DNA of 32,000 bases from Pseudodesulfovibrio piezophilus C1TLV30 (lineage in GTDB: Bacteria; Desulfobacterota; Desulfovibrionia; Desulfovibrionales; Desulfovibrionaceae): the NCBI RefSeq assembly GCF_000341895.1, contig NC_020409.1, positions 2,850,001 to 2,882,000 of the forward strand, read 5' to 3'. The first letter of the stretch is position 1, and the number at the start of each line of letters is the position of its first letter. Positions 11,939 to 32,000 of the stretch are shown piece by piece. The notes beneath the pieces were generated by a model that worked only from the letters and a program-made list of their open reading frames with translations, was not told where the DNA came from and did no database searches. The position numbers and the translations under genes were made by a program.

Positions 11939-12478
11939 ATGTACGGGAAACCGATGCTATCAGAGTTATTCACATCAAAAACAAGAATAAAAGTGCTGCT
12001 TAAGCTTTTTTTGAACCCAGAAGTATCTTGTTATCTTAGGGGATTAGCTGCTGAGTTTTCTCAGTCTCCCAATGCGCTTAAGTGTGAATTGGATCGGTTG
12101 AGTGAAGCGGGGTATTTGGAACGAGAGAAAAAAGGGCGAAGCGTCTACTTCAAGGCAAATAAAGCTCATCCTTTCTTCCCGGAAATCAGCTCCATTGTTC
12201 GTAAGACTTGCGGTATAGATAAATTAGTTAATGAGGTTGTTTCTAGCTTAGGAGATGTTCATGCAGTTTATATTTTGGATGACTATGCTCAAGGAAATGA
12301 TTCTGGATTGATTGATGCTTTGATTGTCGGAAACATAGATAAAAGTCGTTTAGATGAGCTTCGTAGTATTGTGGAAAGTAAAGTGGGGAGAAAGGTGCGC
12401 ACCATGGATGTAAACCCAGAAGAATTTGAAGAGAGTCGGAGTGTGTTTTTGAGTAGGCCGAATTGGAAGGTTTTATAG
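11939..12478 (+). CDS. Winged-helix (ArsR-like) transcriptional regulator with a C-terminal nucleotidyltransferase-fold-like domain
   Basis: 179 aa. N-terminal part: TRIKVLLKLFLNPEVSCYLRGLAAEFSQSPNALKCELDRLSEAGYLEREKKGRSVYF (wHTH). C-terminal part: VHAVYILDDYAQGNDSGLIDALIVGNID, resembling a degenerate minimal NTase strand-loop-strand. Confidence 0.6.
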   Translation: MYGKPMLSELFTSKTRIKVLLKLFLNPEVSCYLRGLAAEFSQSPNALKCELDRLSEAGYLEREKKGRSVYFKANKAHPFFPEISSIVRKTCGIDKLVNEVVSSLGDVHAVYILDDYAQGNDSGLIDALIVGNIDKSRLDELRSIVESKVGRKVRTMDVNPEEFEESRSVFLSRPNWKVL

Positions 12479-14316
12479 CTGTGACCAGTCTTCAGGAAAA
12501 TGCGGTGGAGCAAAAAAACTTTCGGTTACTGTGGAATATTAAAAGGATTTTTTCTTTTTTACAGAGCAAAGATAGAAAACGTTTTTTTGTGTTGACGTTT
12601 GGCGGTGTTGGGGTTGCGATTGTAGATGCCATTTCAGTCGCTCTAGTAGCGCTAATGGTTACTGTTTTAAATGATCCATCGACGATAATGCAAAGCGAAA
12701 TTGGTGTTCGATTGTGCAGTATATTCCCAGTCTTTCTCTCCTTTGAGAACAGAGCAATCATCGTGGGCGTGGGAATGCTTGCTACATTTTTTATTATTAT
12801 CAAAAATAGTTGTCGCGCTTTATTCGAATATAGAGTTGTTCGATTTGCAGCTGGGATGGATAGGCTAATAGGTAAGCATCTTTTAGGGCGTTTTTTGAAT
12901 ATGCCATACGGTTGGCATATTGAACAGAATTCGTCTGATCTCTTACTTGCAATTAGCTGGCGGTCGCATTTTGGCTCAGTGATGCTTTTATCTTTGATAA
13001 ATTTATTTGTGGATTGCGCATTTATATTATTTGTTCTGGCCTCTCTTTTTGTTGTTGCGCCCGTAATTTCTTTTTTTGTCGTCTTTTTTGTGGGGGGAGG
13101 AGGCTGTTTTATATATCGAAAAACTCGTACAGTTCTTGATCAGGAGGTTGTATTGGGTCAAGAGTATAAAATGAAAATAAGCCAAATTTCACTGAAAATA
13201 ATACAAGGTGTCAAGGATGTCATAGTTTTTTCTAAAGAGAGAGAGTTTATTAACGAATATGATGCATCTGCACAGCGGCAAGAACGAATATTAGCACGTC
13301 AACGACTCTTTACAAATATACCTATGCAAGTCTTGGAAGCATTTGGTTTTACCATGCTTGTTTTTTCTATGTTTGCATTACTTTTTATTTTTCCAATGCC
13401 TAGAGGGAAGGTTATTGGTATTGTAGTGCTTCTCGCTGTAACAGCATGGAGAGTTCTTCCTGTAGCATCACGGTTATTGGTCTCCATCTCTTCTTTAAGA
13501 AGCTCTCTCCCTTATTTGTCTAAAATATTTGATTATTTAGAGATGCAAAAAGCTAACCCATTGCTTAATCCTGCATCTGGTACTTTACTGAATTGGAAGC
13601 AAGATATCGTTTTTGACAAGGTTGATTTCCGTTATAAAAAAGGGCTCCCTAAGGCGGTGCATTCTATTGATTTTCGGATACAAAAAGGGAGCGTCTTCGG
13701 TGTTGTGGGCCAGTCTGGAGCAGGGAAGAGTACTCTTATTGATCTTCTTGTGGGATTACTTACACCGGATTCCGGAGAAATCCTGTTAGATGGGAAAAGG
13801 ATTTCTGACCTTGATTTAGGCCGGTTGCGGAATCTGTTTGGGTATGTGTCTCAGCACCCCTACATAGTTGATGCATCTTTGGCGGAGAATGTTGCTTTTG
13901 GATTGAGTGGTCGAGCTATAGATATGGAGCGGGTCAAAACTTGCTGTCAGATGGCTGCCGTTGATTTTTTAGACGAACTTCCCGATGGTTTTAATACACG
14001 AATTGGTGAGCGGGGTGTGAGGCTTTCCGGTGGGCAGCGGCAGCGAATTTCCATCGCACGGGCTTTGTATCATAAACCGGAGCTACTGATCTTTGATGAG
14101 GCTACAAGCGCCCTTGATAAAGGGACAGAGTTAGCTATTCGTGAAACGATTTATTCACTGAAAGGGAATGTTACATTACTATTAGTAGCACATCGTATGA
14201 GTACTCTTGAAGGGTGCGATTCTATTCTTTGGTTGGATAAAGGGAAAGTTCATAAAATCGGAACACCTGAGGAAATATTGCCATTGCTTGATCGTTTATC
14301 AATAAAAAAACAGTAA
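12463..14316 (+). CDS. Fused TMD-NBD ABC exporter (MsbA/PglK-like type I exporter)
   Basis: Six hydrophobic helices followed by Walker A GQSGAGKST, signature LSGGQRQR and Walker B LLIFDEATSALD. There is no in-frame ATG near the 5' end. The start is TTG 12463 or, perhaps more likely, GTG 12481 just after the upstream stop. Confidence 0.85.
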   Translation: MEGFIAVTSLQENAVEQKNFRLLWNIKRIFSFLQSKDRKRFFVLTFGGVGVAIVDAISVALVALMVTVLNDPSTIMQSEIGVRLCSIFPVFLSFENRAIIVGVGMLATFFIIIKNSCRALFEYRVVRFAAGMDRLIGKHLLGRFLNMPYGWHIEQNSSDLLLAISWRSHFGSVMLLSLINLFVDCAFILFVLASLFVVAPVISFFVVFFVGGGGCFIYRKTRTVLDQEVVLGQEYKMKISQISLKIIQGVKDVIVFSKEREFINEYDASAQRQERILARQRLFTNIPMQVLEAFGFTMLVFSMFALLFIFPMPRGKVIGIVVLLAVTAWRVLPVASRLLVSISSLRSSLPYLSKIFDYLEMQKANPLLNPASGTLLNWKQDIVFDKVDFRYKKGLPKAVHSIDFRIQKGSVFGVVGQSGAGKSTLIDLLVGLLTPDSGEILLDGKRISDLDLGRLRNLFGYVSQHPYIVDASLAENVAFGLSGRAIDMERVKTCCQMAAVDFLDELPDGFNTRIGERGVRLSGGQRQRISIARALYHKPELLIFDEATSALDKGTELAIRETIYSLKGNVTLLLVAHRMSTLEGCDSILWLDKGKVHKIGTPEEILPLLDRLSIKKQ

Positions 14317-14439
14317 TTGTATTTACATAAATATGGTGGCTAATCGAATTTACCCACATTTTTTGGGATATATTACTCACATGAGCGAGTTACGGTTTTT
14401 TGAAGAGAATCTATGATGGTTTATGGAGAAAATTAAAGA

Positions 14440-15186
14440 ATGGGATCTTTTTTTATCGATAGAAAATACCGTTTGCCACGTAAATGGTCTAATAAAGAGT
14501 TGAGGAAGATTGCTCCTTTGATCAAAGGAGAGGTCGTCAATGTTAGTGCGTGGAAAGACTCTGATAAAGAAGGTGGTTTTTATTGCGATTATTTCCGCAA
14601 TGCTTCTCACTATAGCATCACTAATTACAAGGCTGAAGCGCGAGGATTTCAGGGGAAGGAAGGCGAGATCTTTTTGGATTTGGAACAAGTACTCTCGGGA
14701 GAATTGGTACAGAGGTTTGACGTTGCTTTTAATCATACAACTCTGGAGCACACGTTCGACGTCTTTACCGCATTTTCAAATTTATGTTCACTTTCCAAGG
14801 ATATGGTCATAGTTGTGGTGCCTCATCTACAACAGATGCACAGTACATTCGGAGATTTTTGGCGATTTACACCAGAAAGTGTGGAAAAATTGTTTTTGAT
14901 GAATGGGCTGAAATTAGTTTACCTAAGCTTTAATGAGCACTGTGACTCTTCTGTGTATATTTTTGCAGTGGGGTCACGGTTTCCTGAACGATGGCGAAAG
15001 ACCATAGGCAATGATTGTAGTTATATGTCCAAATATCAACCTCATGATGGAATGGAAGCCTTTATTGGTTGTCAGGCGGTGACTAATCTTGGGTACAGAG
15101 CAGGTCTTGTGCTGAAGTCCTTCCAATCTATTTTAACAAGGTTGTATAAAAAACTTGGTACATTGATGGGAAAGAGTTTCATATAA
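14440..15186 (+). CDS. Probable class I SAM-dependent methyltransferase (divergent motif I)
   Basis: 248 aa. FDVAFNHTTLEHTFDVFTAFSNLCSLSKDMVIVVVP...FWRFTPESVEKLFLMNGL matches the post-motif-II organisation of Methyltransf_11-like enzymes. The N-terminal glycine-rich motif is not canonical. Confidence 0.5.
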   Translation: MGSFFIDRKYRLPRKWSNKELRKIAPLIKGEVVNVSAWKDSDKEGGFYCDYFRNASHYSITNYKAEARGFQGKEGEIFLDLEQVLSGELVQRFDVAFNHTTLEHTFDVFTAFSNLCSLSKDMVIVVVPHLQQMHSTFGDFWRFTPESVEKLFLMNGLKLVYLSFNEHCDSSVYIFAVGSRFPERWRKTIGNDCSYMSKYQPHDGMEAFIGCQAVTNLGYRAGLVLKSFQSILTRLYKKLGTLMGKSFI

Positions 15187-15210
15187 AAAGATGTCTCTAC
15201 GGGGTAGAAA

Positions 15211-16266
15211 TTGTTGTCTGGAGAGGAGTTAAATGTGGCGAATATTTCAGGGGATATAATCAAAGTCCGTGGGTGGACCTTTGGTAAAGAAGATCATTGT
15301 TGGCTAGCCCAAAGCTGGCCTGATGAGTATTACGAGACCCCCTATTGTTGCGGTTGTGGGGCTTCCATGACTCCTTGTTTTCAGATTTCCAATTCCGCTG
15401 GAGCCTTAGGATGTGTCACTAGTATTTGCCAAAGGTGTGGTTTTGTAAAAAAAACCAGTCAGTTGGGTGGTCAGTATATATCGCAGCACTTTGCTAAAAG
15501 ATGGCTGATCAGAAGAGATGATGTTCTGAGAGAGTCGCTATATCCCTATACCAAATTAGCACCTTTAGTTAAAGCTGGAGGCCGAGTCTTGGATCTTGGT
15601 TGTGGTATCGGGGATCGCCTGCTGCCATTTCATAACAATGGTTTTGACGTATATGGCGTTGACCCTTCAGAGCATCGTACCCAAATAGCGACAACTCGAA
15701 TGCGCAATATCCTGGTAGGGGATGGTGAAACCTACCTTGCCAACAATCATGAAAAATTTGATCTTATATATCTTTTTAATGTGCTTCAATTCTTGGTTAA
15801 TCCCTTTGCGGTTATCCAAGCGGCTCTTGAGCACGTGGTTGATGGTGGCTTTCTGTTCTTTTCAGTGAGCAATTTTCAGGAGCATAATATGGTCCAGTTG
15901 GCTCATCTGGGAGTCATCGTTTCTTATCTTAGTCCTTATTCTGTCGGGCGTTTTTTACAAACTTCGAATTTAGATAGTTGTGTTGTTGAATACAGTCATT
16001 CTCCGTTTGAATGCATTATTCGCAAAGGGAAAGGGGCGCAAGGCAATCAAAATATGCATCAAGCATCTCCTTGTCAGTTGACTAATATTGTGGATTCAGC
16101 TCGAACAAGTTCTGTGTATTCTCGATTTCCTTACATGGTTCGGAGAAGTGTTGAGTTAAATTCACCTGGAAGGACAATTGAATTTCATCGGCGCTTTATT
16201 CGAAAAATAAAGGCTCCCCTAACATTCATGTATGACACAGAATATATTCCTGTGCTTCTGAAGTAG
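15211..16266 (+). CDS. Class I SAM-dependent methyltransferase with an N-terminal Cys-rich (zinc-ribbon-like) segment
   Basis: Motif I RVLDLGCGIGDRL, then FDVYGVDPS and FDLIYLFNVLQFLVNP. N-terminal cysteines at YCCGCG...CQRCG. The ORF-track start is TTG. GTG 15235 has a better SD (GGAGAGGAG). Confidence 0.75.
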   Translation: MLSGEELNVANISGDIIKVRGWTFGKEDHCWLAQSWPDEYYETPYCCGCGASMTPCFQISNSAGALGCVTSICQRCGFVKKTSQLGGQYISQHFAKRWLIRRDDVLRESLYPYTKLAPLVKAGGRVLDLGCGIGDRLLPFHNNGFDVYGVDPSEHRTQIATTRMRNILVGDGETYLANNHEKFDLIYLFNVLQFLVNPFAVIQAALEHVVDGGFLFFSVSNFQEHNMVQLAHLGVIVSYLSPYSVGRFLQTSNLDSCVVEYSHSPFECIIRKGKGAQGNQNMHQASPCQLTNIVDSARTSSVYSRFPYMVRRSVELNSPGRTIEFHRRFIRKIKAPLTFMYDTEYIPVLLK

Positions 16267-16275
16267 GTGTTGGTT

Positions 16276-17589
16276 ATGACTTTGGGAGCCGTGTTGCAAA
16301 AAGTTATTGGTTCTTATTTGACCTGTAAACTGTATGATCTAACATATGATTTTCGTATGCGTTTTCGCCATTTCTGTATGAATTGGAGGCAGGGAGGGAG
16401 TTCCCTCAAGACTGACCTTCCTTTTAAGCGTATAGGTTCTTCAAATTATCATGTTTTTTTTGGGTATTACGATTTTTCACCACTCAACTTTGTAAATGAT
16501 AAATGCCTAGCTCTTAGAGTTGCAGGTAAAAACACCCCTCCCACCGCAAATGAGATCGCTGAAGTAGGATACTACAATCTTGGTGTTGGAGTGTCTGACT
16601 TTGTAAAAATAGGGGAGACGCGCTCCTGGTGCTGGCAACAAGGCTGCCGGCTACAATGGTTTCCAGGCTTGGGTGGGAATGAAGATGATCATGTGCTGTA
16701 TAATACTCGGCAGAGGGGAGTCGGAAGTGTCATACAGAATATCAAAACATTTGAGATTGTGAAGAAATTCTCTCGCCCTGTGTATGCTTGCGATTCTAGA
16801 AATCACTATGCCTATAGTCTCGATTTTGGAAGATTGCACCGCCTTCGGCCCGGATATGGATACGCCAGCGAGTTGGAGTTGAGTCGTGATGAGAAGTGCC
16901 CTCATGATAACGGTATCTGGCGAATTGATCTGCGAACAGGGGAAGAAGTATTACTTTTTTCCATCAAGGAACTTGCCAGCATATCTCCTTTACCCGGTAT
17001 GGAGGGTGCAGACCACTACATTAATCATATTTTGGTGAATCCTTCAGGCACACGATTTTTATTCATACATCTTTGGACAAGTCATGGTGAAAAATTTGGG
17101 CGTATGTTTACTGCGGATTGTAATGGTGAAAATATACATTTAGTTATGAATTCAGGGCATGCGTCACATTATTGTTGGGATGGTGATGATGTTTTGTTTT
17201 GCTACAGTGACTTGCCACAAAGTGGAATGCATGTGCATCGTTTTCGCGACAAATCCGATAGTGTTGATGCCGTCTTGGTAGATCTTGTTAAAGAAGATTG
17301 TCATATGTCAATTTCCCCTACCCATGATCTTATGCTGATAGATTCCTATCCAACTCCTGAGAGAGTGCAATCTGTTGCAATTTGTTCCATGAAACCTGAA
17401 AGGCGAGTGGATATTGCTGGTTTTTATACGCCGAGTCATTTTACGGGAGAAGTTCGCTGTGACTTGCACCCCCGGTGGAGTCGAAATGGCTTGAAGGTGT
17501 CTGTGGATGCCGTTTATAAGGGGAAAAGATCGATATATATATTTGATGTTACTGGCTTCATTCGTGAACAAAAATTTTACGGGAAGTAA
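16276..17589 (+). CDS. Hypothetical protein, probable beta-propeller (TolB / oligogalacturonide-lyase-like C-terminal signature); function unknown
   Basis: ORF 16267..17589 trimmed to ATG 16276 (AGGTG 6 nt upstream). It has repeated beta-strand-rich blocks and a terminal CDLHPRWSRNG motif, reminiscent of the HPxFSxDG blades of TolB/Ogl-type propellers. Confidence 0.45.
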   Translation: MTLGAVLQKVIGSYLTCKLYDLTYDFRMRFRHFCMNWRQGGSSLKTDLPFKRIGSSNYHVFFGYYDFSPLNFVNDKCLALRVAGKNTPPTANEIAEVGYYNLGVGVSDFVKIGETRSWCWQQGCRLQWFPGLGGNEDDHVLYNTRQRGVGSVIQNIKTFEIVKKFSRPVYACDSRNHYAYSLDFGRLHRLRPGYGYASELELSRDEKCPHDNGIWRIDLRTGEEVLLFSIKELASISPLPGMEGADHYINHILVNPSGTRFLFIHLWTSHGEKFGRMFTADCNGENIHLVMNSGHASHYCWDGDDVLFCYSDLPQSGMHVHRFRDKSDSVDAVLVDLVKEDCHMSISPTHDLMLIDSYPTPERVQSVAICSMKPERRVDIAGFYTPSHFTGEVRCDLHPRWSRNGLKVSVDAVYKGKRSIYIFDVTGFIREQKFYGK

Positions 17590-17934: not shown

Positions 17935-18987
17935 TTGCGTACATTCTCTTTAGATGGGAAAAGTATTGGTAATGGGAAGAAAACTTTTATTATTGCCGAA
18001 ATTGGGCTGGCTCATGATGGTTCGCTGGGAATGGCTCATAGTTATGTTGACGCTGTTGCTGACGCAGGAGCAGATGCTATTAAATTCCAGACGCATATAG
18101 CAGAAGCTGAGAGCACAAGTAATGAGCAGTTTCGAATTAACTTTTCCTATGAAGACGCTACTCGGTTTGACTATTGGAAACGCACCGGGTTTACCTTTGA
18201 GCAATGGGATGGGCTGTTTGCGCATGCTCAAGAGAGAGGTTTGACTTTTTTAAGCACTCCTTTTTCCACTACTGCAGTTCACTGGCTTGACAAAATAGGT
18301 GTAAGAGGTTGGAAAGTCGGGTCTGGCGATCTGGGTAATTGGGAGTTGGCTGAAGCCTTGGCTCATACAGGTAAACCCGTTATTTTTAGTACAGGTATGT
18401 CTTCATGGGATGAGATTGAGGATGTCATTGCATTTTGTACTGAGCGGAAAATGGACATGGCTTTGCTGCAATGTACTTCGAAGTACCCTGCTCCTTTGAA
18501 AGATGTTGGGTTAAATGTCATTGACCGCCTTCAGAATGATTTTGGTATAATCTCTGGATTGTCGGACCATTCCGGGACCGTTTTCCCAAGTTTGGCAGTT
18601 ATGGCTCGTGGTGTTGCTATTGTTGAATTTCACGTAGTTTTTGATAAGCGAATGTTTGGGCTAGACACGAAAGCGTCACTGACGTTGGATGAACTGGCCT
18701 TTGTTGTGGAAGCGCGGAATGCTTTTCACAGCATGGGGAGCGAAGTAGATAAAAATACAACAGCTCAAGAAATGGGGAAGATGCGAAAATTATTTGGTAG
18801 AAGCTTGGCACTACGTCATGATCTAGCAAAAGGGGCTATCCTTACAGAAGAGGATCTTTGTCTAAAAAAACCTGGATCAGGTATTCCTCATAAAGAGTTG
18901 GTTAACCTTATAGGAAAACCCCTCACGCGAGCGGTTCCCGCCTCTCGTTTGTTGTGCATTGAAGATATTGGAAATGAATATGAATAA
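17935..18987 (+). CDS. neuB: Nonulosonic (sialic) acid synthase, NeuB family, with C-terminal SAF domain
   Basis: FIIAEIGLAHDGS...DAIKFQTH...LSTPFS...WKVGSGDL...VIFSTGMSSWDEIE...LLQCTSKYPAP...GLSDHSG...VEFHV is collinear with NeuB/LegI/PseI. The C-terminal RSLALRHDLAKGAILTEEDLCLKKPGSGI is the SAF domain. TTG start 17935 is preceded by GGAGGG. Confidence 0.9.
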   Translation: MRTFSLDGKSIGNGKKTFIIAEIGLAHDGSLGMAHSYVDAVADAGADAIKFQTHIAEAESTSNEQFRINFSYEDATRFDYWKRTGFTFEQWDGLFAHAQERGLTFLSTPFSTTAVHWLDKIGVRGWKVGSGDLGNWELAEALAHTGKPVIFSTGMSSWDEIEDVIAFCTERKMDMALLQCTSKYPAPLKDVGLNVIDRLQNDFGIISGLSDHSGTVFPSLAVMARGVAIVEFHVVFDKRMFGLDTKASLTLDELAFVVEARNAFHSMGSEVDKNTTAQEMGKMRKLFGRSLALRHDLAKGAILTEEDLCLKKPGSGIPHKELVNLIGKPLTRAVPASRLLCIEDIGNEYE

Positions 18988-20134: not shown

Positions 20135-21005
20135 TTCTACTAAATACTCTGGAAGTAAGAATGAGTTCCGGACCAATTGGGCTTCTCGCAAAGAGAGCAA
20201 GTATAACCATTGGACAGATGGAAAAACCACCAATCAGATTCAGTTTGCTTTTCGTAACCATTGGGAGATTTTTTCCGAGTTTATGAATTTTTCTGAGCCT
20301 GGTGATAGCTTGGAAGTTGGATGTGGGCGAGGCTCTTTATCCAGTTATTTTGCAGACAATGGGTGGCGGGTCTCCTTATTGGATAGCTCGTCAGAGGTCA
20401 TAGAGATAGCAAAAAGAATTTTTCAGATTAATGGACACAGTGGCCAGTTCTTTTCTGGCGATGCAAATAATTTACCTTTCGAGTCGGATTCTTTTGATGT
20501 GGTTTTTAGCATTGGATTGCTGGAACACTTTGAAGATGCCTCAACCTCTTTGAATGAGCAGTGGAGGGTTTTGAGACCTGGAGGGTGGGTGTTTTCGTAT
20601 ATCGTCCCTGAGCGTCCTCAAAATGTGCAAAAATATTTTAATTGGGTAAATATTCTTTTGCGGAAAACAGTGGGTAAATTCCTGAGCAAAAAAAGTGAAA
20701 TTTCAAAGCAGGACATCTATAGAAATGACTATTCTTCGGACGTCTACTTGCCAATGATTGAGACATTGAATCCAAGCAAGGTCGTGGTAACTGGGATGTA
20801 TCCAATGCCGATGATAAGTCATTCTCCAGAATTTCCGTTTTCATTGCTACCCTCGCCATTGGAACGCTTTTTAGTGATGCTTTTCAAAGGAGCGATTTTT
20901 CTCCGTAAGATTGTGACTGGCCGGCATGGCTGGCTATGCTCTGAACCCATGGGGCAGGCATTTCTTATTGCGGTACAAAAAGGGGATTTTGGTGAAAATA
21001 GTTAA
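20127..21005 (+). CDS. Class I SAM-dependent methyltransferase (Methyltransf_11-like)
   Basis: Motif I LEVGCGRGSLS, then VSLLDSS, GDANNLPFESDSFDVVFSIGLLEHF and LRPGGWVF. ATG 20127 overlaps the neuC stop (20132-20134). Confidence 0.8.
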   Translation: MSSSTKYSGSKNEFRTNWASRKESKYNHWTDGKTTNQIQFAFRNHWEIFSEFMNFSEPGDSLEVGCGRGSLSSYFADNGWRVSLLDSSSEVIEIAKRIFQINGHSGQFFSGDANNLPFESDSFDVVFSIGLLEHFEDASTSLNEQWRVLRPGGWVFSYIVPERPQNVQKYFNWVNILLRKTVGKFLSKKSEISKQDIYRNDYSSDVYLPMIETLNPSKVVVTGMYPMPMISHSPEFPFSLLPSPLERFLVMLFKGAIFLRKIVTGRHGWLCSEPMGQAFLIAVQKGDFGENS

Positions 21006-25278: not shown

Positions 25279-25284
25279 AGTAAA

Positions 25285-26445
25285 GTGAAAATAGTCTATA
25301 TCAGTTCGTCATTTTTGCCCTCTTCTACAGCAAATAGTGTCCATGTTATGCGGATGTGTGATGCTTTTGTGAGTAATGGGCATGAAGTTTTATTGTTGGC
25401 GAGAAAACCGTCCAAGGCAGATGAGGTCGCTTGTTCTGATATTTATGAATTTTATGGTGTTAAGTCTAGATTTCCGATTGAATTCTATTGGTACAACGAG
25501 AGTCGGCAGAGTAGATGTCGCCACTTGGGTGGAACTGTTGCGTCTGCGGCGAGCATTGCTTTTAAGCTTTTTCGCTCCAGGCCTGATCTAGTCTTTGGCC
25601 GTGATCCGTATGGTTGCCATGTGGCAGCGACTTTAGGATATCCTGTTATTTATGAGACTCATTGGGTTCTTCATTCTGATTCGATCATTGATCGATATAT
25701 TATGAATCGTTTGGCTAACCACAAGAATATTAAACGTTTTGTTGTGATTTCTGAAGCTCTCGCTACACAGGTTGTCAAGGGAGATCATCCCGTGAGCAGG
25801 GAGAAACTGTTAGTGGCCCCCGATGGCGCGGATATAGTCCAAGATGATCGATTGCCGGAGTTTTGGCCAGGACGTCGATCAGCTTTGCAGGTTGGATATG
25901 TGGGGGGGCTCTATCGGGGGCGTGGGATTTCAATGATGCTGGAAATGGCTCGGCGATTACCTGATTACGATTTTCATTTCGTGGGTGGTTCCCAGGATGA
26001 CATTGCCAAGCATACTGTTCGGGGCATGAAAAATGTTTTTTTTCATGGGTATGTCGCGCCTGGGGAAGTGTATTCTTATCGTAATAAATGCGACATATTG
26101 TTGGCTCCATATCAGAAAAAAGTCTCAGTTGCTGGTGGCTTAGGAGATACTAGTGGAGTTATGTCACCCCTTAAAGTCTTTGAGTATATGTCAAGCGGTC
26201 GGGCTATGCTTGTCTCAGATATGCCTGTCTTGCATGAGGTGCTCACTTCAGGAGTCAATTGCCTTATGGCTTCTCCTGATTCGTTAGATGCATGGGTTGA
26301 GGCTTTAGAACAATTACGTGATCCTATACTTCGTGCTAATTTGGCTTCTGCCGCCAAAAAAGAATTTCTTGCTAAATATACATGGCAAAAACGGGCAGAA
26401 ACAGTTGTTTCGGCTTGTCCTGATACTGTATTGTTGGGCAGTTAA
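25285..26445 (+). CDS. GT4-family (GT-B) glycosyltransferase
   Basis: GTG start giving VKIVYISSSFLPSSTANSVHV.... C-terminal SPLKVFEYMSSGRAMLVSD is an EX7E-like motif. Confidence 0.8.
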   Translation: MKIVYISSSFLPSSTANSVHVMRMCDAFVSNGHEVLLLARKPSKADEVACSDIYEFYGVKSRFPIEFYWYNESRQSRCRHLGGTVASAASIAFKLFRSRPDLVFGRDPYGCHVAATLGYPVIYETHWVLHSDSIIDRYIMNRLANHKNIKRFVVISEALATQVVKGDHPVSREKLLVAPDGADIVQDDRLPEFWPGRRSALQVGYVGGLYRGRGISMMLEMARRLPDYDFHFVGGSQDDIAKHTVRGMKNVFFHGYVAPGEVYSYRNKCDILLAPYQKKVSVAGGLGDTSGVMSPLKVFEYMSSGRAMLVSDMPVLHEVLTSGVNCLMASPDSLDAWVEALEQLRDPILRANLASAAKKEFLAKYTWQKRAETVVSACPDTVLLGS

Positions 26446-26732: not shown

Positions 26733-26823
26733 ATTAACTAAAAATATTATTATATGGTAGAGGTGTAATGATTTTTAGTGGATGTATTATGGCTTCTCAT
26801 AGAATGCAGTAAGGATGGGTGGC

Positions 26824-27918
26824 ATGCATATCGTTTTGATTATAGGATCTCTTCAAGGTGGTGGGGCAGAACGAGTGGCGTGTACGTTAGCTAATGCTTG
26901 GTCAGCCGAAGGGAATAAAGTTACTATTTTGACGTTTGAGGCTTATGGTGCCTTGTCTGCATATCCCCTTTCTCATTTAATTGAAGTTAAACGTCTTAAT
27001 TTACTCAATCCTGTTAAGAATAAAATAGGTGCTTTTAAGCGATTTTTAGACAGTGTTCTGATTATTCGAGCTAATATACGTGACCTACAACCGACTGTCG
27101 TTGTGTCTTTTATTGATGAGGTTAACGTCCGAACTATCATTGCCTGCAAAGGGCTAAATGTGCCTGTTTTTATTTCGGAACGAGTTCACCCTGGGTATTT
27201 TCGGATTAGTTGGTTTTGGAATTTGCTAAGGCGGTTGGTCTATCGTTATGCTGACGCCCTTATTGTGCAGACAAAGTCTATAGAGCTTTGGTGCAAAGAG
27301 CGATTTAGCACAACCACATATATAATTCCTAATCCTATTACCCCCACGAAGCAAAGGTTGTCGTGCGATTCGCGCGAGAGACGAACAATAGCTGCAGCCG
27401 GAAGACTTATGCATCAAAAGGGGTTTGATCTTCTTATTGACGCATTCGCTCAGTTGGCTTCTTCATTCCTTCTGTGGGATTTGGTTATATATGGCGAAGG
27501 AGAAGAACTCCATACTCTAGAGACTTTAATAAGAGTCAGAGGGTTGGAAGGACGTGTGAGGCTTCTTGGTTGGCAGAGCCAATTGGATGAAGCTCTCGCT
27601 GAGGTCGATATTTTTTGTCTTTCTTCTCGTTTTGAGGGGTTCCCTAATGTTCTGTGTGAGGCAATGAGACTTGGTTTGGCTGTTGTGGCTACAGATTGTC
27701 CAAGCGGTCCCGCTGATATTATAACCAATGGGAAAGATGGTATATTAGTTGAGGTTGGGAGCGATACTGAACTGGCTCAGGGGCTACGTCAGGTCATGGA
27801 AAATGAGTCATTGAGGTGTGCGCTTGGGAGTAATGCCAAAATGATAGGGCAAAGATATAGTACCGAAAAAATATTGATTTTGTGGAAAGAATGTTTTGAT
27901 AATACTTTGAGGGTCTAG
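26824..27918 (+). CDS. GT4-family glycosyltransferase
   Basis: MHIVLIIGSLQGGGAERVA... and SSRFEGFPNVLCEAMRLGLAVVATDCPSGPADII (EX7E). ATG 26824 lies 9 nt after AAGGA. The ORF-track maximum starts at 26815. Confidence 0.85.
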   Translation: MHIVLIIGSLQGGGAERVACTLANAWSAEGNKVTILTFEAYGALSAYPLSHLIEVKRLNLLNPVKNKIGAFKRFLDSVLIIRANIRDLQPTVVVSFIDEVNVRTIIACKGLNVPVFISERVHPGYFRISWFWNLLRRLVYRYADALIVQTKSIELWCKERFSTTTYIIPNPITPTKQRLSCDSRERRTIAAAGRLMHQKGFDLLIDAFAQLASSFLLWDLVIYGEGEELHTLETLIRVRGLEGRVRLLGWQSQLDEALAEVDIFCLSSRFEGFPNVLCEAMRLGLAVVATDCPSGPADIITNGKDGILVEVGSDTELAQGLRQVMENESLRCALGSNAKMIGQRYSTEKILILWKECFDNTLRV

Positions 27919-28158: not shown

Positions 28159-30030
28159 ATGTGTGGGGTCGTTGGAATTTACTCCCCTGGATTGTTACCT
28201 GATAGGGAGATACTTCGATCCATGATCGACGCAATGGTCCATCGGGGACCAGATGATTCAGGGCTATGGCTTAATGAGGAGGAATGTGTCGCTTTTGGGC
28301 ATCGTCGGCTTTCCATCTTAGATGTTTCATCGTTTGGTCATCAACCTATGGAATCCTTATGTGGACGCTATATTATTTCCTACAACGGAGAGATCTATAA
28401 TCACTTAGAACTTCGTTCTGAGTTGTCTGATTATCCTTTTAAATCAATGTCAGATACGGAAACCATTCTAGCAGCCGTTAGTGCATGGGGGCTGGAGCCT
28501 GCATTAAGGCGTTTTGTAGGCATGTTCGCCTTTGCTCTCTGGGATCGTCGAGAGAGGCAACTTTTTCTCATACGTGACCGTATGGGCATCAAACCAATCT
28601 ACTACAGCAAACTTGGGAGCGGTTGGCTATTTGGCTCGGAACTCAAATCATTAAAGGCGCACCCTCATTTCAGGCCAGCTCTTAATAGAGAAGCATTAAA
28701 CTTGTATTTTAGGCATAATTATATTCCTGCGCCATTTTCTGTTTATATGGACACTTGGAAACTTGAGCCTGGTTCTATGGCTATTATCAACAGTTCAGGT
28801 TTAAAGTTGCGGCAATGGTGGGATACAGATAGCGTGTGGCGCGCAGGTCAGAGAAGTCAATTTTCCGGAAGTGATGATGAGGCCGTGAACAGTCTTGAGA
28901 GTGTTCTACTAAAGGCTATTTCAGCGCGCATGTTAAGTGATGTCCCTCTCGGGGCTTTCCTTTCGGGAGGTATAGATTCATCAACTGTTGTGGCGCTGAT
29001 GCAAACAATTTCATCGAAGCCTGTCCGCACTTATTCCATTGGATTTCGTGAGGATAAATATAATGAAGCAACTTATGCAAAAGCCGTTGCAACTCATTTG
29101 GCCACAGACCATACTGAATTCTATGTTAGCCCTCGTGATATGCTGGATGTGTTGCCGGCCATGGCTCAATATTGGGATGAACCATTTGCCGATTCATCTC
29201 AGGTGCCTACGTACTTACTGAGTCGTCTGGCAAGTGAACATGTAACGGTCTCTCTTTCCGGCGATGGGGGAGATGAACTCTTCTCTGGGTATGAGCGTTA
29301 TTTTTGGGCAACAAGGATGTGGAATAATGTGCAGCGTCTTCCGGCTTCAGTACGGAGCTTTCTTGGAGGGGCTAATAAAGTTATTCCTGATGCTCTCCTC
29401 GATTTGCTGGGGGCAAATGGTTTTAAGATTCGTTGGAGACTCGATGCCATTGCGATGAAGGATTTTTCTTCATTTTATAAGTATTTTACTTCAGTTTTTA
29501 AAAAAAATGAGATTGTGCTTGGTGTAGAAGAGCCAGAATCTTGTTTAAGTAACTTGCCGCCCACAGGGAACTTGTGGGGTTGGATGGAGCTCTATGATTT
29601 GTTGGCTTACCTCCCTGATGATATTTTGACGAAAGTTGACCGAGCCTCAATGGCTGCCTCTCTTGAGGCTCGAGTTCCTTTGCTTGACCATCGGGTAGTA
29701 GAATTTGCAGCGAGTCTGCCGATGAGCATGAAGGTTAGAGATGGGAAAGGCAAGTGGCTCCTTCGGCAAGTTTTGCATCGGTATGTTCCTCAGACCATCG
29801 TGGAGCGTCCGAAGATGGGCTTTGGCATTCCAATGCAGGAGTGGTTGCAAACTCAGTTAAAGAAGTGGTGTTGTGACATGTTGGACAGTTCACGTATTAA
29901 GCAACAAGGATATCTGGATGCTTCGCGTGTCGAACTGATGTTGAATCGGTTTATGAGAGGAGAAATACTGTGGGGGCAACACCTATGGAGTATACTGATG
30001 TTTCAGTCTTGGCTTGAGGAGTGGGAATAG
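28159..30030 (+). CDS. Asparagine synthase (glutamine-hydrolysing) family amidotransferase, AsnB-like, glycan-locus paralogue
   Basis: MCGVVGIY (Ntn Cys2), HRGPDD, SYNGEIYN, and the PP-loop FLSGGIDSSTVVALM. CAGGAG lies 9 nt before ATG 28159. Confidence 0.88.
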   Translation: MCGVVGIYSPGLLPDREILRSMIDAMVHRGPDDSGLWLNEEECVAFGHRRLSILDVSSFGHQPMESLCGRYIISYNGEIYNHLELRSELSDYPFKSMSDTETILAAVSAWGLEPALRRFVGMFAFALWDRRERQLFLIRDRMGIKPIYYSKLGSGWLFGSELKSLKAHPHFRPALNREALNLYFRHNYIPAPFSVYMDTWKLEPGSMAIINSSGLKLRQWWDTDSVWRAGQRSQFSGSDDEAVNSLESVLLKAISARMLSDVPLGAFLSGGIDSSTVVALMQTISSKPVRTYSIGFREDKYNEATYAKAVATHLATDHTEFYVSPRDMLDVLPAMAQYWDEPFADSSQVPTYLLSRLASEHVTVSLSGDGGDELFSGYERYFWATRMWNNVQRLPASVRSFLGGANKVIPDALLDLLGANGFKIRWRLDAIAMKDFSSFYKYFTSVFKKNEIVLGVEEPESCLSNLPPTGNLWGWMELYDLLAYLPDDILTKVDRASMAASLEARVPLLDHRVVEFAASLPMSMKVRDGKGKWLLRQVLHRYVPQTIVERPKMGFGIPMQEWLQTQLKKWCCDMLDSSRIKQQGYLDASRVELMLNRFMRGEILWGQHLWSILMFQSWLEEWE

Positions 30031-30911
30031 TGCTTTGGAGTGGCTTGAAGAGTTTTTTTCGTCGTTATTGTCTTTGTTTTGACAGTATCAGGTTACTTGA
30101 TTGGATGCATCGAAAGAACATTCAATTGTTTTTTTTCTTTTTCATGCGCTATCGGGTTTCTCCTTTGATTCTTGAAGATGTGTATAAGCATGGTTTCGAT
30201 GATGAAGAGATGGGAAGACTCTTTGCTCTGGGAACATCCTCTCTAAAAATTGGAAAAATATTTAAGACAACAGGCTTGATGCGCACTCGCATGGCTGATG
30301 GCATGCTTTTAAAGAGAGCAGAAGAAAAGAAAAAACCATCACTAATGGAAATTGGTGTTTCTGACGGTAGTTCCTCTCTCGGACTTTTCGATCATTTTGA
30401 GATGTTTGAGCGTATTGTTCTCACTGATCGATTTAGTCGATTCTATGTGCGGAAACATTTTTTCTGGAAGCTCATTTTGGACGCTGAAAAAAGAATGTAT
30501 GGCTTAAAAATTCTGTGTTTTTTTATATTCTTATCTCCTAAGAAAGTAAAAGATAGTACCGAGTGTGTCCCCATTGAAGTTATCAATCCTATTCTTCGGA
30601 AGAAGTACGGTATACAGGCCATAACTCGTTTCGATATGTTTGAGGATGTTCTTGATGAACCTGTCGATCTGATCAAGTGTTCAAATATTTTAAATAAGGC
30701 ATACTTTTCTGATAGAGAAATTTGCCTTGCAGTTGCAAAACTTTGCCAAAGTCTCCGCGAGGGAGGCCATATTCTTATTTCCCAGAATAATAAACAATAT
30801 AAAGACGGTGAAGCCGGGTTTATTTTACGAAAAGAAGGCGACGATGTTTACCTTGAAGAAGCCTTTAATAATCATGACTGTTTAAATCTTTTCAAAACTT
30901 ATATTGGATAA
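30021..30911 (+). CDS. Hypothetical protein, possibly a CheR-like SAM methyltransferase fold; start uncertain
   Basis: SLMEIGVSDGSSSL (motif-I-like) and DLIKCSNILNKAYFSDREICLAVAKLCQSLREGGHILIS (CheR-type NVLIYF-like block). The first ~40 codons are T-rich and may be non-coding. Alternative starts are ATG 30105 and ATG 30144. Confidence 0.45.
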   Translation: MGIVLWSGLKSFFRRYCLCFDSIRLLDWMHRKNIQLFFFFFMRYRVSPLILEDVYKHGFDDEEMGRLFALGTSSLKIGKIFKTTGLMRTRMADGMLLKRAEEKKKPSLMEIGVSDGSSSLGLFDHFEMFERIVLTDRFSRFYVRKHFFWKLILDAEKRMYGLKILCFFIFLSPKKVKDSTECVPIEVINPILRKKYGIQAITRFDMFEDVLDEPVDLIKCSNILNKAYFSDREICLAVAKLCQSLREGGHILISQNNKQYKDGEAGFILRKEGDDVYLEEAFNNHDCLNLFKTYIG

Positions 30912-30920
30912 ATTGGTTTC

Positions 30921-32000
30921 ATGAAGGGCTCTCTGAAAATTATGCTGCTTGCTCCTTCCTTGGATGTTGGAGGGGCTGAACGACAATTGAGTTTTTTGGC
31001 AAATGGGCTAAGTCAGCGAGGCCACGATGTCCATGTTGCTCTTTTTTACAAACAGGGGGCATTGCTTGCAGACTTGGCCAAGGGAGTTTGTACGCATGAC
31101 TTAAAAAAACAAGGGCGATTAGATCTTTTCGGTTTTATTTGGCGTTTTCGTCGATTGGTTCAATGTAAACGGCCTGATATAATTTACTCTTTCTTAGGCG
31201 TACCTAATCTCACGTCGGTTTTTTTAAAAATGACAGGTATTCGGGTTCCTATTGTTTGGTCGGTACGTGCTTCTGATGTGGATTTGAGTCAATATGGCAT
31301 ACTATCTCGTCTTTGTTATGCTTTGGAATCAAAGTTGTCCAAGTTTGCCGACCACATCATTGTTAACTCTAGTGCCGGGCAAAAATATTCTATGGCCCAA
31401 GGTTATTCTGGAAAAAAAATGTCAGTTATTTTCAACGGAATAGAGACTGATCTTTTCAAGCCAGACAAGGCAGGTGCTGCCCTTTTACGACAGCAATGGT
31501 CTCTACAACGAGACGATATTCTGATAGGGATCGTTGCCCGGCTTGATCCTATGAAGAATCACGAGACTTTTCTTGAGGCCGCGAAATTGGTTTTAGTCGA
31601 AAATCCGAAAATCCGCTTTGCTTGCATAGGTGATGGGCCGCAATATAAGCAGCTGAAAGCTCTGAGCGAGAGACTTGGGCTTTCAGAAAATCTTATTTGG
31701 GTTGGAGCTCGTTCGGATATGCCCAATATCTATAATGCTCTAGATATTTTGTGCCTTTCGTCTGTTACTGAAGGTTTCCCAAATGCTCTTGGGGAGGCGA
31801 TGAGTTGTAGTGTGCCATGTATCACGACAGATGTTGGGGATGCTGCATATGAAGTGGGTGAAACCGGCATTGTCGTGCCTAAATTGAACCCTGAAGCGAT
31901 GGCGATGGCGATGTTAAAAATGATAGAAAACGTGCGCCGTGGCAAAACATTTGCAACTCGGGCGAGGGTAAAAAAACTGTTTTCAGTGGAGCGTATGGTG
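30921..32000 (+). CDS. GT4-family glycosyltransferase, 3' end beyond the window
   Basis: Not in the ORF track because it is open at the right edge. Hand translation: MKGSLKIMLLAPSLDVGGAERQLSFLANGLSQRGHDVHVALFY...IVARLDPMKNHETFLEAAK...LSSVTEGFPNALGEAMSCSVPCITTDVGD... It stays in frame to position 32000. Confidence 0.85.
   Translation, partial: MKGSLKIMLLAPSLDVGGAERQLSFLANGLSQRGHDVHVALFYKQGALLADLAKGVCTHDLKKQGRLDLFGFIWRFRRLVQCKRPDIIYSFLGVPNLTSVFLKMTGIRVPIVWSVRASDVDLSQYGILSRLCYALESKLSKFADHIIVNSSAGQKYSMAQGYSGKKMSVIFNGIETDLFKPDKAGAALLRQQWSLQRDDILIGIVARLDPMKNHETFLEAAKLVLVENPKIRFACIGDGPQYKQLKALSERLGLSENLIWVGARSDMPNIYNALDILCLSSVTEGFPNALGEAMSCSVPCITTDVGDAAYEVGETGIVVPKLNPEAMAMAMLKMIENVRRGKTFATRARVKKLFSVERMV

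Follow-up and report, generated by a model that had tools for sequence, protein, structure and literature searches.

The window, by which we mean the whole analysed stretch of 32,000 nucleotides from the deep-sea sulfate reducer Pseudodesulfovibrio piezophilus, changes its composition at about 11.9 kb, where the GC fraction, about 0.52 up to that point, falls to about 0.40 (taken interval by interval, 0.47–0.58 in positions 1–12000 and 0.37–0.46 in positions 12001–32000). Downstream of the drop lie 17 co-oriented glycan genes, neuB, neuC and neuA among them, and all open reading frames of this island are on the plus strand. Upstream, the genes for tRNA-Val and tRNA-Asp (5923..6118, plus strand; ARAGORN, Rfam) are a likely landmark for the insertion of foreign DNA. 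Two RHS/YD-repeat shell fragments (6148..8620, plus strand; PF25023 TEN_YD-shell, 57 and 44 bits), orphan remnants of a toxin module, follow the tRNA genes before the island is reached. The edge of the island is marked by a broken ISL3-family transposase (10162..11399, minus strand), a pseudogene split into three ORFs with DDE_Tnp_ISL3, HTH_Tnp_ISL3 and Zn_ribbon_ISL3 in separate ORFs. The nearest relative of the island NeuB is only 73% identical. Because of the GC drop, the tRNA, RHS and ISL3 features at the edge and this distance of NeuB, we consider the region from 11.9 to 32 kb to be a low-GC surface-glycan locus that was probably acquired horizontally, a reading graded below jointly with that of the cassette. 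The measured GC fall and the uniform strand bear out the low-GC glycan island of the preliminary description. The island extends past the end of the window at 32000.

At the core of the island a cassette runs in the order NeuB, NeuC, methyltransferase, D-isomer-specific 2-hydroxyacid dehydrogenase (2HADH), NeuA and KpsC/KpsS-like transferase. The three nonulosonate genes reported earlier are all there: neuB (17935..18987; PF03102 209 bits and a SAF domain) for a nonulosonate synthase family member, neuC (18959/18974..20134; TIGR03568 389 bits, cut-off 236) for a hydrolysing UDP-HexNAc 2-epimerase, and neuA (22910..23635; PF02348 80.6 bits) for a CMP-nonulosonate synthetase. The methyltransferase (20097/20127..21005; Methyltransf_11) starts within the end of neuC. 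Its family comprises 840 clusters, with an Oceanidesulfovibrio protein among the homologues, and has a specific C-terminal region that carries the motifs PMISHSPEFPFSLLP and GRHGWLCSE.MGQAFL; its fold neighbours include carboxyl methyltransferases and leave O-, C- and carboxyl methylation undistinguished. The 2HADH (20992..21951; both Pfam domains) probably starts at the GTG at 20992, resembles PGDH and glycerate dehydrogenase (1WWK 232 bits) and retains the Arg-Glu-His triad. Apart from the anomeric C2, no nonulosonate that we know of has an evident alpha-hydroxy or alpha-keto acid group on which such an enzyme could act, which counts against the pathway proposed below. Both junctions, from neuC to the methyltransferase and from the methyltransferase to the dehydrogenase, have overlapping stop and start codons. 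The last member (23674..25278) is a Capsule_synth protein of the GT-B type (PF05159 34 bits, cut-off 20; E = 4e-5 against KpsC 6MGD) and, at these weak scores, a putative CMP-nonulosonate transferase; CMP-ulosonic acids are the substrates of KpsC, KpsS and KpsS1 (PMC12887879).

The cassette was found in genomes of Proteobacteria and Desulfobacterota and on many metagenome contigs. The same order recurs in the related loci L001, L003-L005, L009-L011, L016, L017, L019, L026, L027, L031, L035 and L057, and some loci have an extra member, which is either a DHDPS-like gene or another methyltransferase. Genes were counted in 27 non-redundant related loci covering at least 6 kb on either side of the cassette methyltransferase: NeuC, 2HADH and NeuA are each present in 26, NeuB in 24 and the Capsule_synth gene in 19, and the latter adjoins NeuA in 19 of the 27. 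Rosetta-stone fusions of the types CTP_transf_3-2HADH, 2HADH-CTP_transf_3 and 2HADH-Methyltransf_11 also occur, and a NeuB with a PGDH domain has been reported from Leptospira santarosai (PMC4758666). Since the methyltransferase and the dehydrogenase are coupled to neuC, are found in 26 of 27 loci and are fused to cytidylyltransferases in some genomes, the data point to chemistry at the level of the nucleotide sugar. Judged by gene order and overlaps, the methyltransferase at 20127 and the 2HADH at 20992 belong to the conserved cassette; being core, translationally coupled members, they do not fit the ad hoc set of tailoring genes that had been pictured before. The earlier claim that the combination is unusual for a sulfate reducer is not supported either: a Desulfobacterales MAG, Candidatus Electrothrix and numerous further environmental bacteria carry the same locus type. 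The cassette is conserved, widespread and previously unstudied.

Against the Neu/Leg equivalog TIGR03569 the island NeuB scores 279 bits, about 120 bits short of the cut-off of 399.65, and against the PseI equivalog 232 bits (cut-off 340). The cassette NeuBs reach 262–297 bits with TIGR03569, compared with 418 bits for the Leg-context NeuB of L001. In this related locus the cassette is adjoined by the full gene set of a Leg-type pathway, which is separate from it and to which that NeuB belongs. The clade shares about 32% identity with NmNeuB, CjPseI and the Leg-context NeuB, and those three share about 33% with one another. By these identities and HMM scores, taken against few references that do not include curated LegI, NANS or Kdn-9-P synthase, the cassette NeuB is placed in a clade of its own, apart from the Neu5Ac, Pse and Leg-context synthases. 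Many members of the clade are annotated by JGI as legionaminate synthase. The similarity scores speak strongly against an SpsE-type locus, which had been named as the alternative (SpsE 109 bits, NmNeuB 159 bits, CjPseI 156 bits); together with the intact catalytic residues they uphold the assignment to the nonulosonate type.

All residues of the PEP, metal and sugar sites are kept except Arg314 of NmNeuB, which is replaced by Lys in 120 of 120 homologues. Arg314 touches the N-acetyl group of ManNAc and is completely conserved in those neuraminic acid synthases of bacteria that have an AFPL domain (PMC11339185); Joseph et al. (2013) name it in their title as essential in NmNeuB. The clade also has invariant Arg at Nm positions 69 and 79, in the same loop as Asn74, which in NmNeuB touches O6 of ManNAc (PMC11339185). 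With scores below both cut-offs and a Lys at the position of Arg314, the earlier proposal of Neu5Ac as the simplest product is not supported.

The other two enzymes of the pathway are closer to those for sialic acid. NeuC is nearer to the human GNE epimerase domain (4ZHT, 250 bits) than to the LegG-type enzyme (5XVS, 200 bits), and NeuA resembles CMP-Neu5Ac synthetases, which are its best solved relatives (6IFD 137 bits, 1EYR 118 bits). Pfam and NCBIfam domain searches found no LegB/C/H-type and no PseB/C/H/G-type genes in 11939–32000, which confirms for this region what had been stated about LegB/C/H and PseB/C/H; a DegT-type aminotransferase lies within 10 kb in at most 5 of the 27 related loci. 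Because NeuC is GNE-like, NeuA is like the CMP-Neu5Ac synthetases and DegT genes are so rare, the backbone of the sugar is probably mono-amino and ManNAc-derived.

The remaining genes of the island lie on both sides of the cassette. Three code for GT4 glycosyltransferases: 25285..26445 (53% identity to a GT4 in L003), the PglH-like 26815..27918 (Glycos_transf_1 132 bits; PglH model 180 bits, below cut-off) and the stp2-like 30921..32000, which runs off the window (TIGR03088 143 bits, below cut-off). The AsnB-type glutamine amidotransferase (28093/28159..30030, likely start 28159, MCG...; Asn_synthase 374 bits; XrtA/PEP-CTERM amidotransferase model 562 bits, below the cut-off of 817) would probably amidate a sugar carboxylate. 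A fused TMD-NBD ABC exporter (12463..14316; ABC_tran 107 bits), putatively a flippase for lipid-linked glycan, has PglK (281 bits) and MsbA (266 bits) as best NCBIfam families, both below the equivalog cut-offs; it is present in 13 of the 27 loci, in which this gene and a MurJ/Wzx-like one are nearly mutually exclusive. The protein encoded at 16267..17589 has no Pfam match; its AlphaFold model (pLDDT 91.5) predicts an N-terminal helical hairpin and a beta-propeller of PL22-lyase-like/TolB-like fold, and a Foldseek comparison with solved structures gave 3C5M and 3PE7 as best matches (TM 0.55–0.64; PL22 oligogalacturonate lyase). Its family has 971 clusters and appears as an accessory gene in 8 of the 27 loci.

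These assignments, as well as those of the 2HADH and the Capsule_synth enzyme, agree with the preliminary description, while its regulator and its five methyltransferases stood only in part. The putative regulator (11939..12478, 179 aa) matches an ArsR-like winged-helix model weakly (NF033788 23 bits), but homologues with 41–68% identity adjoin the cassette in L001, L002, L005, L015 and L102. Two methyltransferases are solid, that of the cassette and a class I SAM enzyme of 351 aa (15211..16266; Methyltransf_23 66.5 bits) with homologues in L004 and L013 (27–33% identity) and a tblastn match in L093. The gene at 21966..22700, probably a second methyltransferase, has a weak Methyltransf_24 match (E = 2e-4, below the gathering score) and recurs at that position as an accessory gene, with homologues of 38–46% identity in L004, L009, L013, L014, L026, L035 and L057. 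The other two could not be confirmed. The 248-aa protein at 14440..15186 has only a methyltransferase-like motif, FDVVF..LEH, with no Pfam or NCBIfam match and a probability of 5% in hhalign against the methyltransferase family; L003, L004, L013 and L031 have, at the same position, proteins of some 230 aa with 54–56% identity to it. The 296-aa protein at 30021..30911 gave only CheR and PMT2_N hints (E about 0.1) and has no homologue among the related loci. As accessory parts, the propeller, the 248-aa protein and the additional methyltransferases recur from locus to locus.

From these data we propose the following pathway. The GNE-like NeuC would hydrolyse and 2-epimerise a UDP-HexNAc to a ManNAc-type aldose, which the clade-specific NeuB, presumed active from its conserved catalytic residues, would condense with PEP. 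The cassette methyltransferase and the PGDH-like 2HADH would then act on the free acid or the CMP-sugar, adding a methyl group and carrying out one redox step; NeuA would form the CMP-sugar and the KpsC/KpsS/KpsS1-like Capsule_synth transferase would pass it to an acceptor. The three GT4 enzymes would build the rest of the glycan, AsnB would amidate a carboxyl group, the PglK/MsbA-type ABC protein would flip or export the lipid-linked product, and the winged-helix protein may regulate the locus. The product would most likely be a nonulosonic acid that derives from ManNAc, is activated with CMP and is altered by methylation and a redox step; the cassette probably serves to make and attach a nine-carbon sugar that is new, modified and sialic-acid-like. 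The product would therefore be other than plain Neu5Ac, Leg or Pse. Methylated CMP-nonulosonates do occur naturally (preprint 10.64898/2026.04.20.719630). We give a probability of about 0.6 to the whole reading, namely a horizontally acquired island whose core is a conserved six-gene cassette making, activating and transferring a nonulosonic acid of an uncharacterised type.

The cassette could instead make ordinary CMP-Neu5Ac, as first assumed, with the methyltransferases, 2HADH, AsnB and the propeller acting on residues other than this one or on the polymer once it is complete. A GNE-like NeuC that passes the hydrolysing UDP-GlcNAc 2-epimerase equivalog, a NeuA nearest to CMP-Neu5Ac synthetases, the intact catalytic residues of NeuB and a window without dehydratase or aminotransferase would all fit. 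We nevertheless regard this as unlikely in view of the gap of NeuB to the curated Neu/Leg cut-off, the Lys in place of Arg314 in every clade member and the coupling and fusions of the methyltransferase and the dehydrogenase. Another candidate is a dicarboxylic non-2-ulosaric acid derived from UDP-GlcNAcA or UDP-GalNAcA, in which a TviB-type dehydrogenase would lead to a HexNAc-uronate for NeuC and for condensation with PEP by NeuB, and the alpha-hydroxy-acid end at C8–C9 would serve the PGDH-like 2HADH, the methyltransferase (methyl ester) and AsnB (amide). In this reading the 2HADH would have a glycerate-like substrate that makes chemical sense. A TviB-type UDP-GlcNAc 6-dehydrogenase gene is indeed present in 13 of the 27 loci, often immediately ahead of NeuB and in part of the cases accompanied by a TviC-like epimerase; it is absent, however, from the window and from about half of the related loci, and polysaccharide loci commonly contain TviB and TviC as the source of GalNAcA residues. 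The invariant Arg69 and Arg79, assumed to be oriented towards the substrate in the loop contacting ManNAc O6, would suit such a sugar, as would the carboxyl methyltransferases among the fold neighbours and the DHDPS-like genes of related loci with their weak KdgD matches, DHDPS-family enzymes acting on keto-deoxy-aldarates. We know of no precedent for a sugar of this kind and the nearest solved NeuC relative works on UDP-GlcNAc, so that we consider it quite improbable.

We consider a legionaminic-type sugar, or another of the 5,7-diamino kind, very unlikely. Its LegB/C/H-like early genes would have to lie beyond 32000, where the island continues, or elsewhere in the genome, and the NeuC family model does cover LegG-type enzymes, just as the JGI labels speak for legionaminate; against this stand the closer likeness of NeuC to GNE, the rarity of DegT-type aminotransferases and, in L001, the separation of the Leg-type set from the adjoining cassette. 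We give hardly any credence to the absence of a nonulosonate system, with the NeuB-like and cytidylyltransferase-like enzymes acting on a different acid in SpsE- or phosphonate-type chemistry. NeuB does lie outside the curated equivalogs, and the CTP_transf_3 family, which also holds non-sugar cytidylyltransferases, would be compatible with a non-sugar substrate. Genes for PEP mutase or phosphonates were not encountered, which counts against phosphonate-type chemistry, and NeuB, much nearer to NmNeuB and CjPseI than to SpsE and with its site residues kept except Arg314, is always paired with an equivalog-passing NeuC and a KpsC-like transferase.

Around the nearest relatives of the NeuB protein, on unrelated metagenome contigs as well as in genomes, the gene order NeuB, NeuC, Methyltransf_11, 2-hydroxyacid dehydrogenase, cytidylyltransferase and Capsule_synth is conserved. 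An insertion is often found after the dehydrogenase gene, either a second small methyltransferase, which in the window starts at 21966, or a gene of the DHDPS/NanA family. The metagenome locus L031 contains genes for a TviB-like protein, the ABC protein, the propeller protein, the 248-aa protein, NeuB and NeuC, followed by methyltransferase, dehydrogenase, NeuA, Capsule_synth, two GT4 enzymes and AsnB. Since L031 carries nearly all genes of the island, what the preliminary description called an "unusual set of tailoring enzymes" is a recurrent locus type and not an idiosyncratic mix.

The cassette methyltransferase with its family-specific C-terminal region was used as locus marker (840 database clusters at E ≤ 1e-10). 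It retrieved 19 loci from species-representative genomes, one locus in Aliamphritea ceti and 80 metagenome loci. Among the 19 carriers are a Desulfobacterales MAG, Candidatus Electrothrix gigas, Rhodocyclaceae, Hyphomicrobium, SAR116, Ahrensia marina, Peteryoungia aggregata and a Rhizobium sp. The gene counts come from 27 non-redundant loci in which the marker is flanked by at least 6 kb in both directions. NeuC, the 2-hydroxyacid dehydrogenase and the cytidylyltransferase are each present in 26 of the 27 loci, NeuB in 24 and the Capsule_synth protein in 19. An SDR epimerase/dehydratase was counted in 14 loci, a TviB-type UDP-GlcNAc 6-dehydrogenase and an ABC exporter in 13 each, a DHDPS-like protein in 12, a MurJ/Wzx-like protein in nine, the propeller and the second methyltransferase in eight each, and a DegT-type aminotransferase in at most five. 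In several unrelated lineages the TviB-type gene is situated immediately upstream of the cassette (loci L027, 5487–7829; L016, 5464–7745; L011, 4465–5913; L026, 2951–4210), in two of these cases together with a TviC-like 4-epimerase; in A. ceti a TviC-like epimerase gene overlaps the start of neuB. Upstream GFO/IDH-hexapeptide and DegT genes, as found in locus L005, and the TviC-like epimerases were considered as nonulosonate feeders and discarded because these genes are not universal.

Family searches of the island itself bore out almost all earlier gene calls, the methyltransferases apart. NeuB (gene start 17935), NeuC (18959 or 18974), a CTP_transf_3 cytidylyltransferase (NeuA, 22910), a D-2-hydroxyacid dehydrogenase, AsnB, three GT4 enzymes and a PglK/MsbA-like ABC exporter are supported; the Capsule_synth protein (23674) and an ArsR-like winged-helix protein gave weak matches. 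Five methyltransferases had been called, two of which are solid and one weak, the remaining two being unconfirmed. The 248-aa protein encoded at 14440 reached an hhalign probability of 5% against the methyltransferase family. Alignment with homologues relocates the start codon of the cassette methyltransferase to 20127 and, for the dehydrogenase, to a GTG at 20992, so that each gene overlaps the preceding one. The island genes are co-oriented and tightly packed except for three long gaps (17590–17934, 345 bp; 22701–22909, 209 bp; 26446–26814, 369 bp), which may be internal transcription starts or module junctions. The gaps are without Rfam match, and neither their promoter-like sites nor the number of sites in the promoter and terminator scan exceeded shuffled sequence.

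The NeuB protein, 100% identical to the NCBI entry for P. piezophilus, has the architecture of the NeuB superfamily (PF03102, 209 bits; SAF, 22.5 bits) and keeps the catalytic, metal and PEP-site residues E25, K53, Q55, K129, S132, S154, Y186, S213, H215, E234, H236 and D247. It scores 159 bits with the N. meningitidis Neu5Ac synthase (NmNeuB, the reference for residue numbering), 156 bits with C. jejuni PseI and 109 bits with SpsE. An SpsE-like placement, which the preliminary description had named as evidence against a sialic-like sugar, was therefore not seen. On the N-acetylneuraminate/legionaminate synthase profile TIGR03569 the protein reaches 279.3 bits, below the cut-off of 399.65, and four other cassette NeuBs reach 262–297 bits. 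The second NeuB of the metagenome contig L001, which stands in a legionaminic context next to genes for a dehydratase and an aminotransferase and has a NeuC and a cytidylyltransferase of its own, scores 418.4 bits. The score of the window protein on the PseI profile TIGR03586 (231.6 bits) is likewise below the cut-off of 340.25. The cassette NeuBs are 26–35% identical to NmNeuB (the window protein about 32%), PseI and the L001 legionaminic-context NeuB, which are about 33% identical to each other; the placement as a separate clade is based on a small reference set. Automated labels such as "N-acetylneuraminate synthase" and "legionaminate synthase" thus prove unreliable for this clade.

In NmNeuB, Arg314 of the antifreeze-like (AFPL) domain binds the carbonyl of the N-acetyl group of ManNAc; it is conserved without exception among the bacterial neuraminic acid synthases with this domain, and Asn74 contacts O6 (PMC11339185). 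Arginine is found at the 314 position in NmNeuB, PseI and the L001 legionaminic-context NeuB, whereas the window NeuB, the NeuBs of 14 other cassette loci and 120 of 120 database homologues have lysine there, making this lysine a diagnostic signature of the cassette NeuB. Moreover, arginines at the NmNeuB positions 69 and 79, in the loop with Asn74, are invariant in the cassette NeuBs. These residue patterns point to a sugar pocket that probably differs from those of all characterised synthases.

NeuC scores 389.1 bits on TIGR03568, the profile of the hydrolysing UDP-GlcNAc 2-epimerase NeuC/NnaA (cut-off 235.9). Among solved structures it is closest to the human GNE epimerase domain (4ZHT, 250 bits), a LegG-type enzyme following with 200 bits; N. 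meningitidis SiaA (6VLB/6VLC) is absent among its solved matches at E ≤ 1e-10. NeuA matches CTP_transf_3 with 80.6 bits (cut-off 22.6) and is closest to CMP-Neu5Ac synthetases (6IFD, 137 bits; 1EYR, 118 bits), and with 141 bits it stays below the PseF equivalog cut-off of 205.7. Taken together, the family results for NeuB, NeuC and NeuA favour a mono-amino precursor of the ManNAc type.

We compared the cassette with the known nonulosonate pathways. The bacterial Neu5Ac pathway (NeuC–NeuB–NeuA of E. coli K1; SiaA, SiaC and SiaB of N. meningitidis) likewise combines these three enzyme families in a single operon, and the PEP, metal and catalytic residues of its NeuB are kept in the cassette. The cassette NeuB differs, however, by the lysine in place of Arg314 and by a different O6-contacting loop, and the cassette has two further obligatory members, the methyltransferase and the 2-hydroxyacid dehydrogenase. 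With the animal GNE–NANS–CMAS pathway the cassette shares the GNE-like NeuC, and the mammalian Neu5Ac-9-P synthase is likewise without an equivalent of Arg314 (PMC11339185). These two features were the reason to consider a phospho-sugar route via ManNAc-6-P. It was rejected, as ManNAc kinase and Neu5Ac-9-P phosphatase were not seen among the family matches of the window, and the Pfam listings of the related loci that were examined showed no kinase or phosphatase for this route either. The legionaminic pathway (LegB/C/H/G/I/F of C. jejuni and L. pneumophila) also has a NeuC-like epimerase, a NeuB-like synthase and a cytidylyltransferase, but the L001 legionaminic-context NeuB belongs to a different clade (418 versus 262–297 bits), and family searches found no LegB dehydratase, LegC aminotransferase or LegH N-acetyltransferase in 11939–32000. 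Nor did they find PseB/C/H/G-type genes in the window, in agreement with the earlier remark that LegB/C/H- and PseB/C/H-type genes are missing there. The pseudaminic route does without a NeuC-type epimerase.

The dehydrogenase is a D-isomer-specific 2-hydroxyacid dehydrogenase (PF02826, 168.6 bits; PF00389, 64.4 bits) with the GxGxxG NAD site, and its triad R254, E283 and H311 is invariant in the cassette family. It scores 230 bits on the phosphoglycerate dehydrogenase equivalog TIGR01327, below the cut-off of 454; its nearest relatives are short phosphoglycerate dehydrogenases (1WWK, 232 bits). Given this relationship and the intact triad, the dehydrogenase should act on an alpha-hydroxy or alpha-keto acid. 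To our knowledge an ordinary sialic acid has no such site except at the anomeric carbon. Among the relatives of the dehydrogenase in a 50%-identity representative library are three fusion proteins: P0421 (CTP_transf_3–dehydrogenase), P0470 (dehydrogenase–CTP_transf_3) and P0502 (dehydrogenase–Methyltransf_11). A comparative Leptospira paper describes an L. santarosai NeuB with a phosphoglycerate dehydrogenase domain (PMC4758666). These fusions argue that dehydrogenase and methyltransferase share their small-molecule target with NeuB and NeuA. A fold search with the predicted structure of the methyltransferase yielded generic class I neighbours, among them sugar O-methyltransferases, carboxyl methyltransferases and the methyltransferase-fold terpene cyclase TleD, and does not discriminate among these chemistries.

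From gene content, conservation, coupling, fusions and residue patterns we infer the following pathway. NeuC would supply a 2-acetamido-mannose-type aldose, which NeuB would condense with PEP. Methyltransferase and dehydrogenase would modify the product at the level of the free acid or of the CMP-sugar, and NeuA would activate the sugar. The Capsule_synth protein, given its weak similarity to KpsC, may transfer the sugar, the GT4 enzymes would complete the glycan, AsnB could amidate a carboxylate, and the ABC protein would flip the lipid-linked product. The locus would work like a NeuCBA pathway combined with a KpsS/KpsC-type transferase and a PglK-type flippase.

The cassette could represent a fourth nonulosonate class, separated at the depth of Neu, Leg and Pse and with an undescribed product, in its most specific version a HexNAc-uronate-derived non-2-ulosaric (C1, C9-dicarboxylic) acid; we consider this unlikely, with a probability of about one in eight. 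Here a TviB-type dehydrogenase, whose gene directly precedes the cassette in about half of the loci, would supply the HexNAc-uronate precursor. The 2-hydroxyacid dehydrogenase would oxidise the glycerate-like C8–C9 end of the product, which would then be converted into a methyl ester or an amide. Such a product would explain both the obligatory 2-hydroxyacid dehydrogenase and the frequent TviB directly upstream, as well as the arginines that the clade keeps throughout in the loop with which NeuB reads the far end of the aldose. Having a glycerate-like end, it would also remove the difficulty of the dehydrogenase substrate. The window itself contains no TviB gene. The dicarboxylic product is an attractive hypothesis.

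The Capsule_synth protein encoded beside neuA (534 aa) is a weak match to its Pfam family (34 bits, cut-off 20), and its very weak similarity to KpsC (6MGD, E = 4e-5) covers residues 328–438; both matches lie in the C-terminal half. The families compared were KpsS/KpsC (GT107), WbbB (GT99) and KpsS1 (GT118), which are retaining CMP-ulosonic acid transferases with CMP-Kdo or CMP-Pse as donors (PMC12887879). GT107 and GT118 enzymes are further recognised by motifs with a catalytic Asp nucleophile and a Glu base. In comparison with the KpsC module the protein is about 200 aa longer. The export genes for KpsM/KpsT and KpsD/KpsE were not found in the window by family searches; a single weak Capsule_synth protein and an ABC protein of the fused PglK/MsbA type do not make a group 2 capsule locus, as had been noted from the sequence. 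Neither the Neu/Leg nor the Pse synthase equivalog accommodates the cassette, and the gene set does not qualify as a Leg or Pse pathway or as a kps locus. The ABC protein is a half-transporter with the fused TMD–NBD layout of the PglK/MsbA flippases, and although PglK is its best NCBIfam match, it remains with 281 bits far below the equivalog cut-off of 1000. Across the loci its gene alternates with the MurJ/Wzx-like gene; the two are almost mutually exclusive, which fits alternative flippases.

The 440-aa propeller protein is without family match, but its AlphaFold model (pLDDT 91.5) is a beta-propeller. The best solved match of the model is the PL22 oligogalacturonate lyase (3C5M, 3PE7; TM 0.55–0.64; 12–14% identity), followed by TolB; searching the PDB with the family profile gave no match at the sequence level. 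In contrast to the PL22 and TolB propellers the protein has an additional N-terminal helical hairpin, and unlike PL22 it stands in a biosynthetic and not a catabolic context. PL22 enzymes are recognised by a seven-bladed propeller, an Mn-binding His/Gln site and catalytic His and Arg; the window family has many His and Arg residues that are invariant in sequence.

Nonulosonic acids such as sialic, legionaminic and pseudaminic acid shape the recognition of the cell surface by phages, hosts and neighbouring cells, and we know of few biosynthetic routes to them. Mass-spectrometry surveys keep finding CMP-ulosonic acids without a pathway in environmental bacteria. According to the accessible part of a 2026 preprint (10.64898/2026.04.20.719630), these include methylated and still unassigned compounds; the unassigned C10 CMP-ulosonic acids of Magnetospirillum are described there as diamino sugars with no gene cluster assigned, and a link to the cassette was looked for in that part and not found. 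In the searchable literature we found no description of a neuB or nonulosonate cassette with a 2-hydroxyacid or phosphoglycerate dehydrogenase and a methyltransferase. The cassette, with the lysine for Arg314 in NeuB and the obligatory methyltransferase–dehydrogenase pair as hallmark, is a testable candidate pathway for a new sialic acid-like sugar and contains a new putative transferase family. It occurs in cultured, tractable organisms, namely P. piezophilus and the aerobic bacteria Ahrensia marina, Aliamphritea ceti and Peteryoungia aggregata.

In the window, the GC content in 1-kb windows is 0.47–0.58 up to 12000 versus 0.37–0.46 over 12001–32000, and the 17 open reading frames from 11939 to the window end are all on the plus strand. 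Upstream of the low-GC block are genes for tRNA-Val and tRNA-Asp (5923–6118); an Rfam search of the window yielded these two tRNAs and no other match. Directly after them lie two RHS/YD-shell fragments (open reading frames 6148–8052 and 7913–8620). With their C-terminal shell segments both align to one and the same region of the YD-shell profile, and they look like orphan toxin-tip cassettes left over from recombination. A decayed ISL3-family insertion sequence sits exactly at the GC transition into the island; its transposase is distributed over three open reading frames on the minus strand (10162–11399) comprising a zinc ribbon, an HTH with the N-terminal DDE part, and the C-terminal DDE part. 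Near the window start the TRAP transporter genes dctQ and dctP are found on the minus strand (near 1028–2581), dctM probably running off the window. A minus-strand gene (2647–4326), flanked by the TRAP transporter and a gene for an RsmB/F-type RNA methyltransferase, encodes an FG-GAP/VCBS-repeat protein of 559 aa whose N terminus resembles a signal peptide; it is unrelated to the island. The plus-strand open reading frames 49–762 and 420–1127 have odd low-complexity translations and are probably spurious.

Three of the related loci deserve mention on their own. On the metagenome contig L001 (1–17007) two nonulosonate pathways are arranged back to back: a Leg-type set (dehydratase, DegT, methyltransferase, cytidylyltransferase, CapK-like ligase, NeuC and NeuB) and the cassette, with winged-helix and ABC genes in between. 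A 2168-bp contig of a Geoglobus sp. MAG (L014) carries methyltransferase, dehydrogenase and second methyltransferase genes with 40–60% identity to the window genes; the archaeal assignment reflects either inter-domain transfer or a binning error. In a Thermodesulfobacteriota MAG (L020, 5226–10858) a 45%-identical homologue of the methyltransferase is located beside a cytidylyltransferase, a polysaccharide deacetylase and a formyltransferase, NeuB and the dehydrogenase being absent within 10 kb. This gene combination recalls the deacetylase–formyltransferase legionaminic cluster and the O-methylated CMP-sugars of Ca. Kuenenia (10.64898/2026.04.20.719630).
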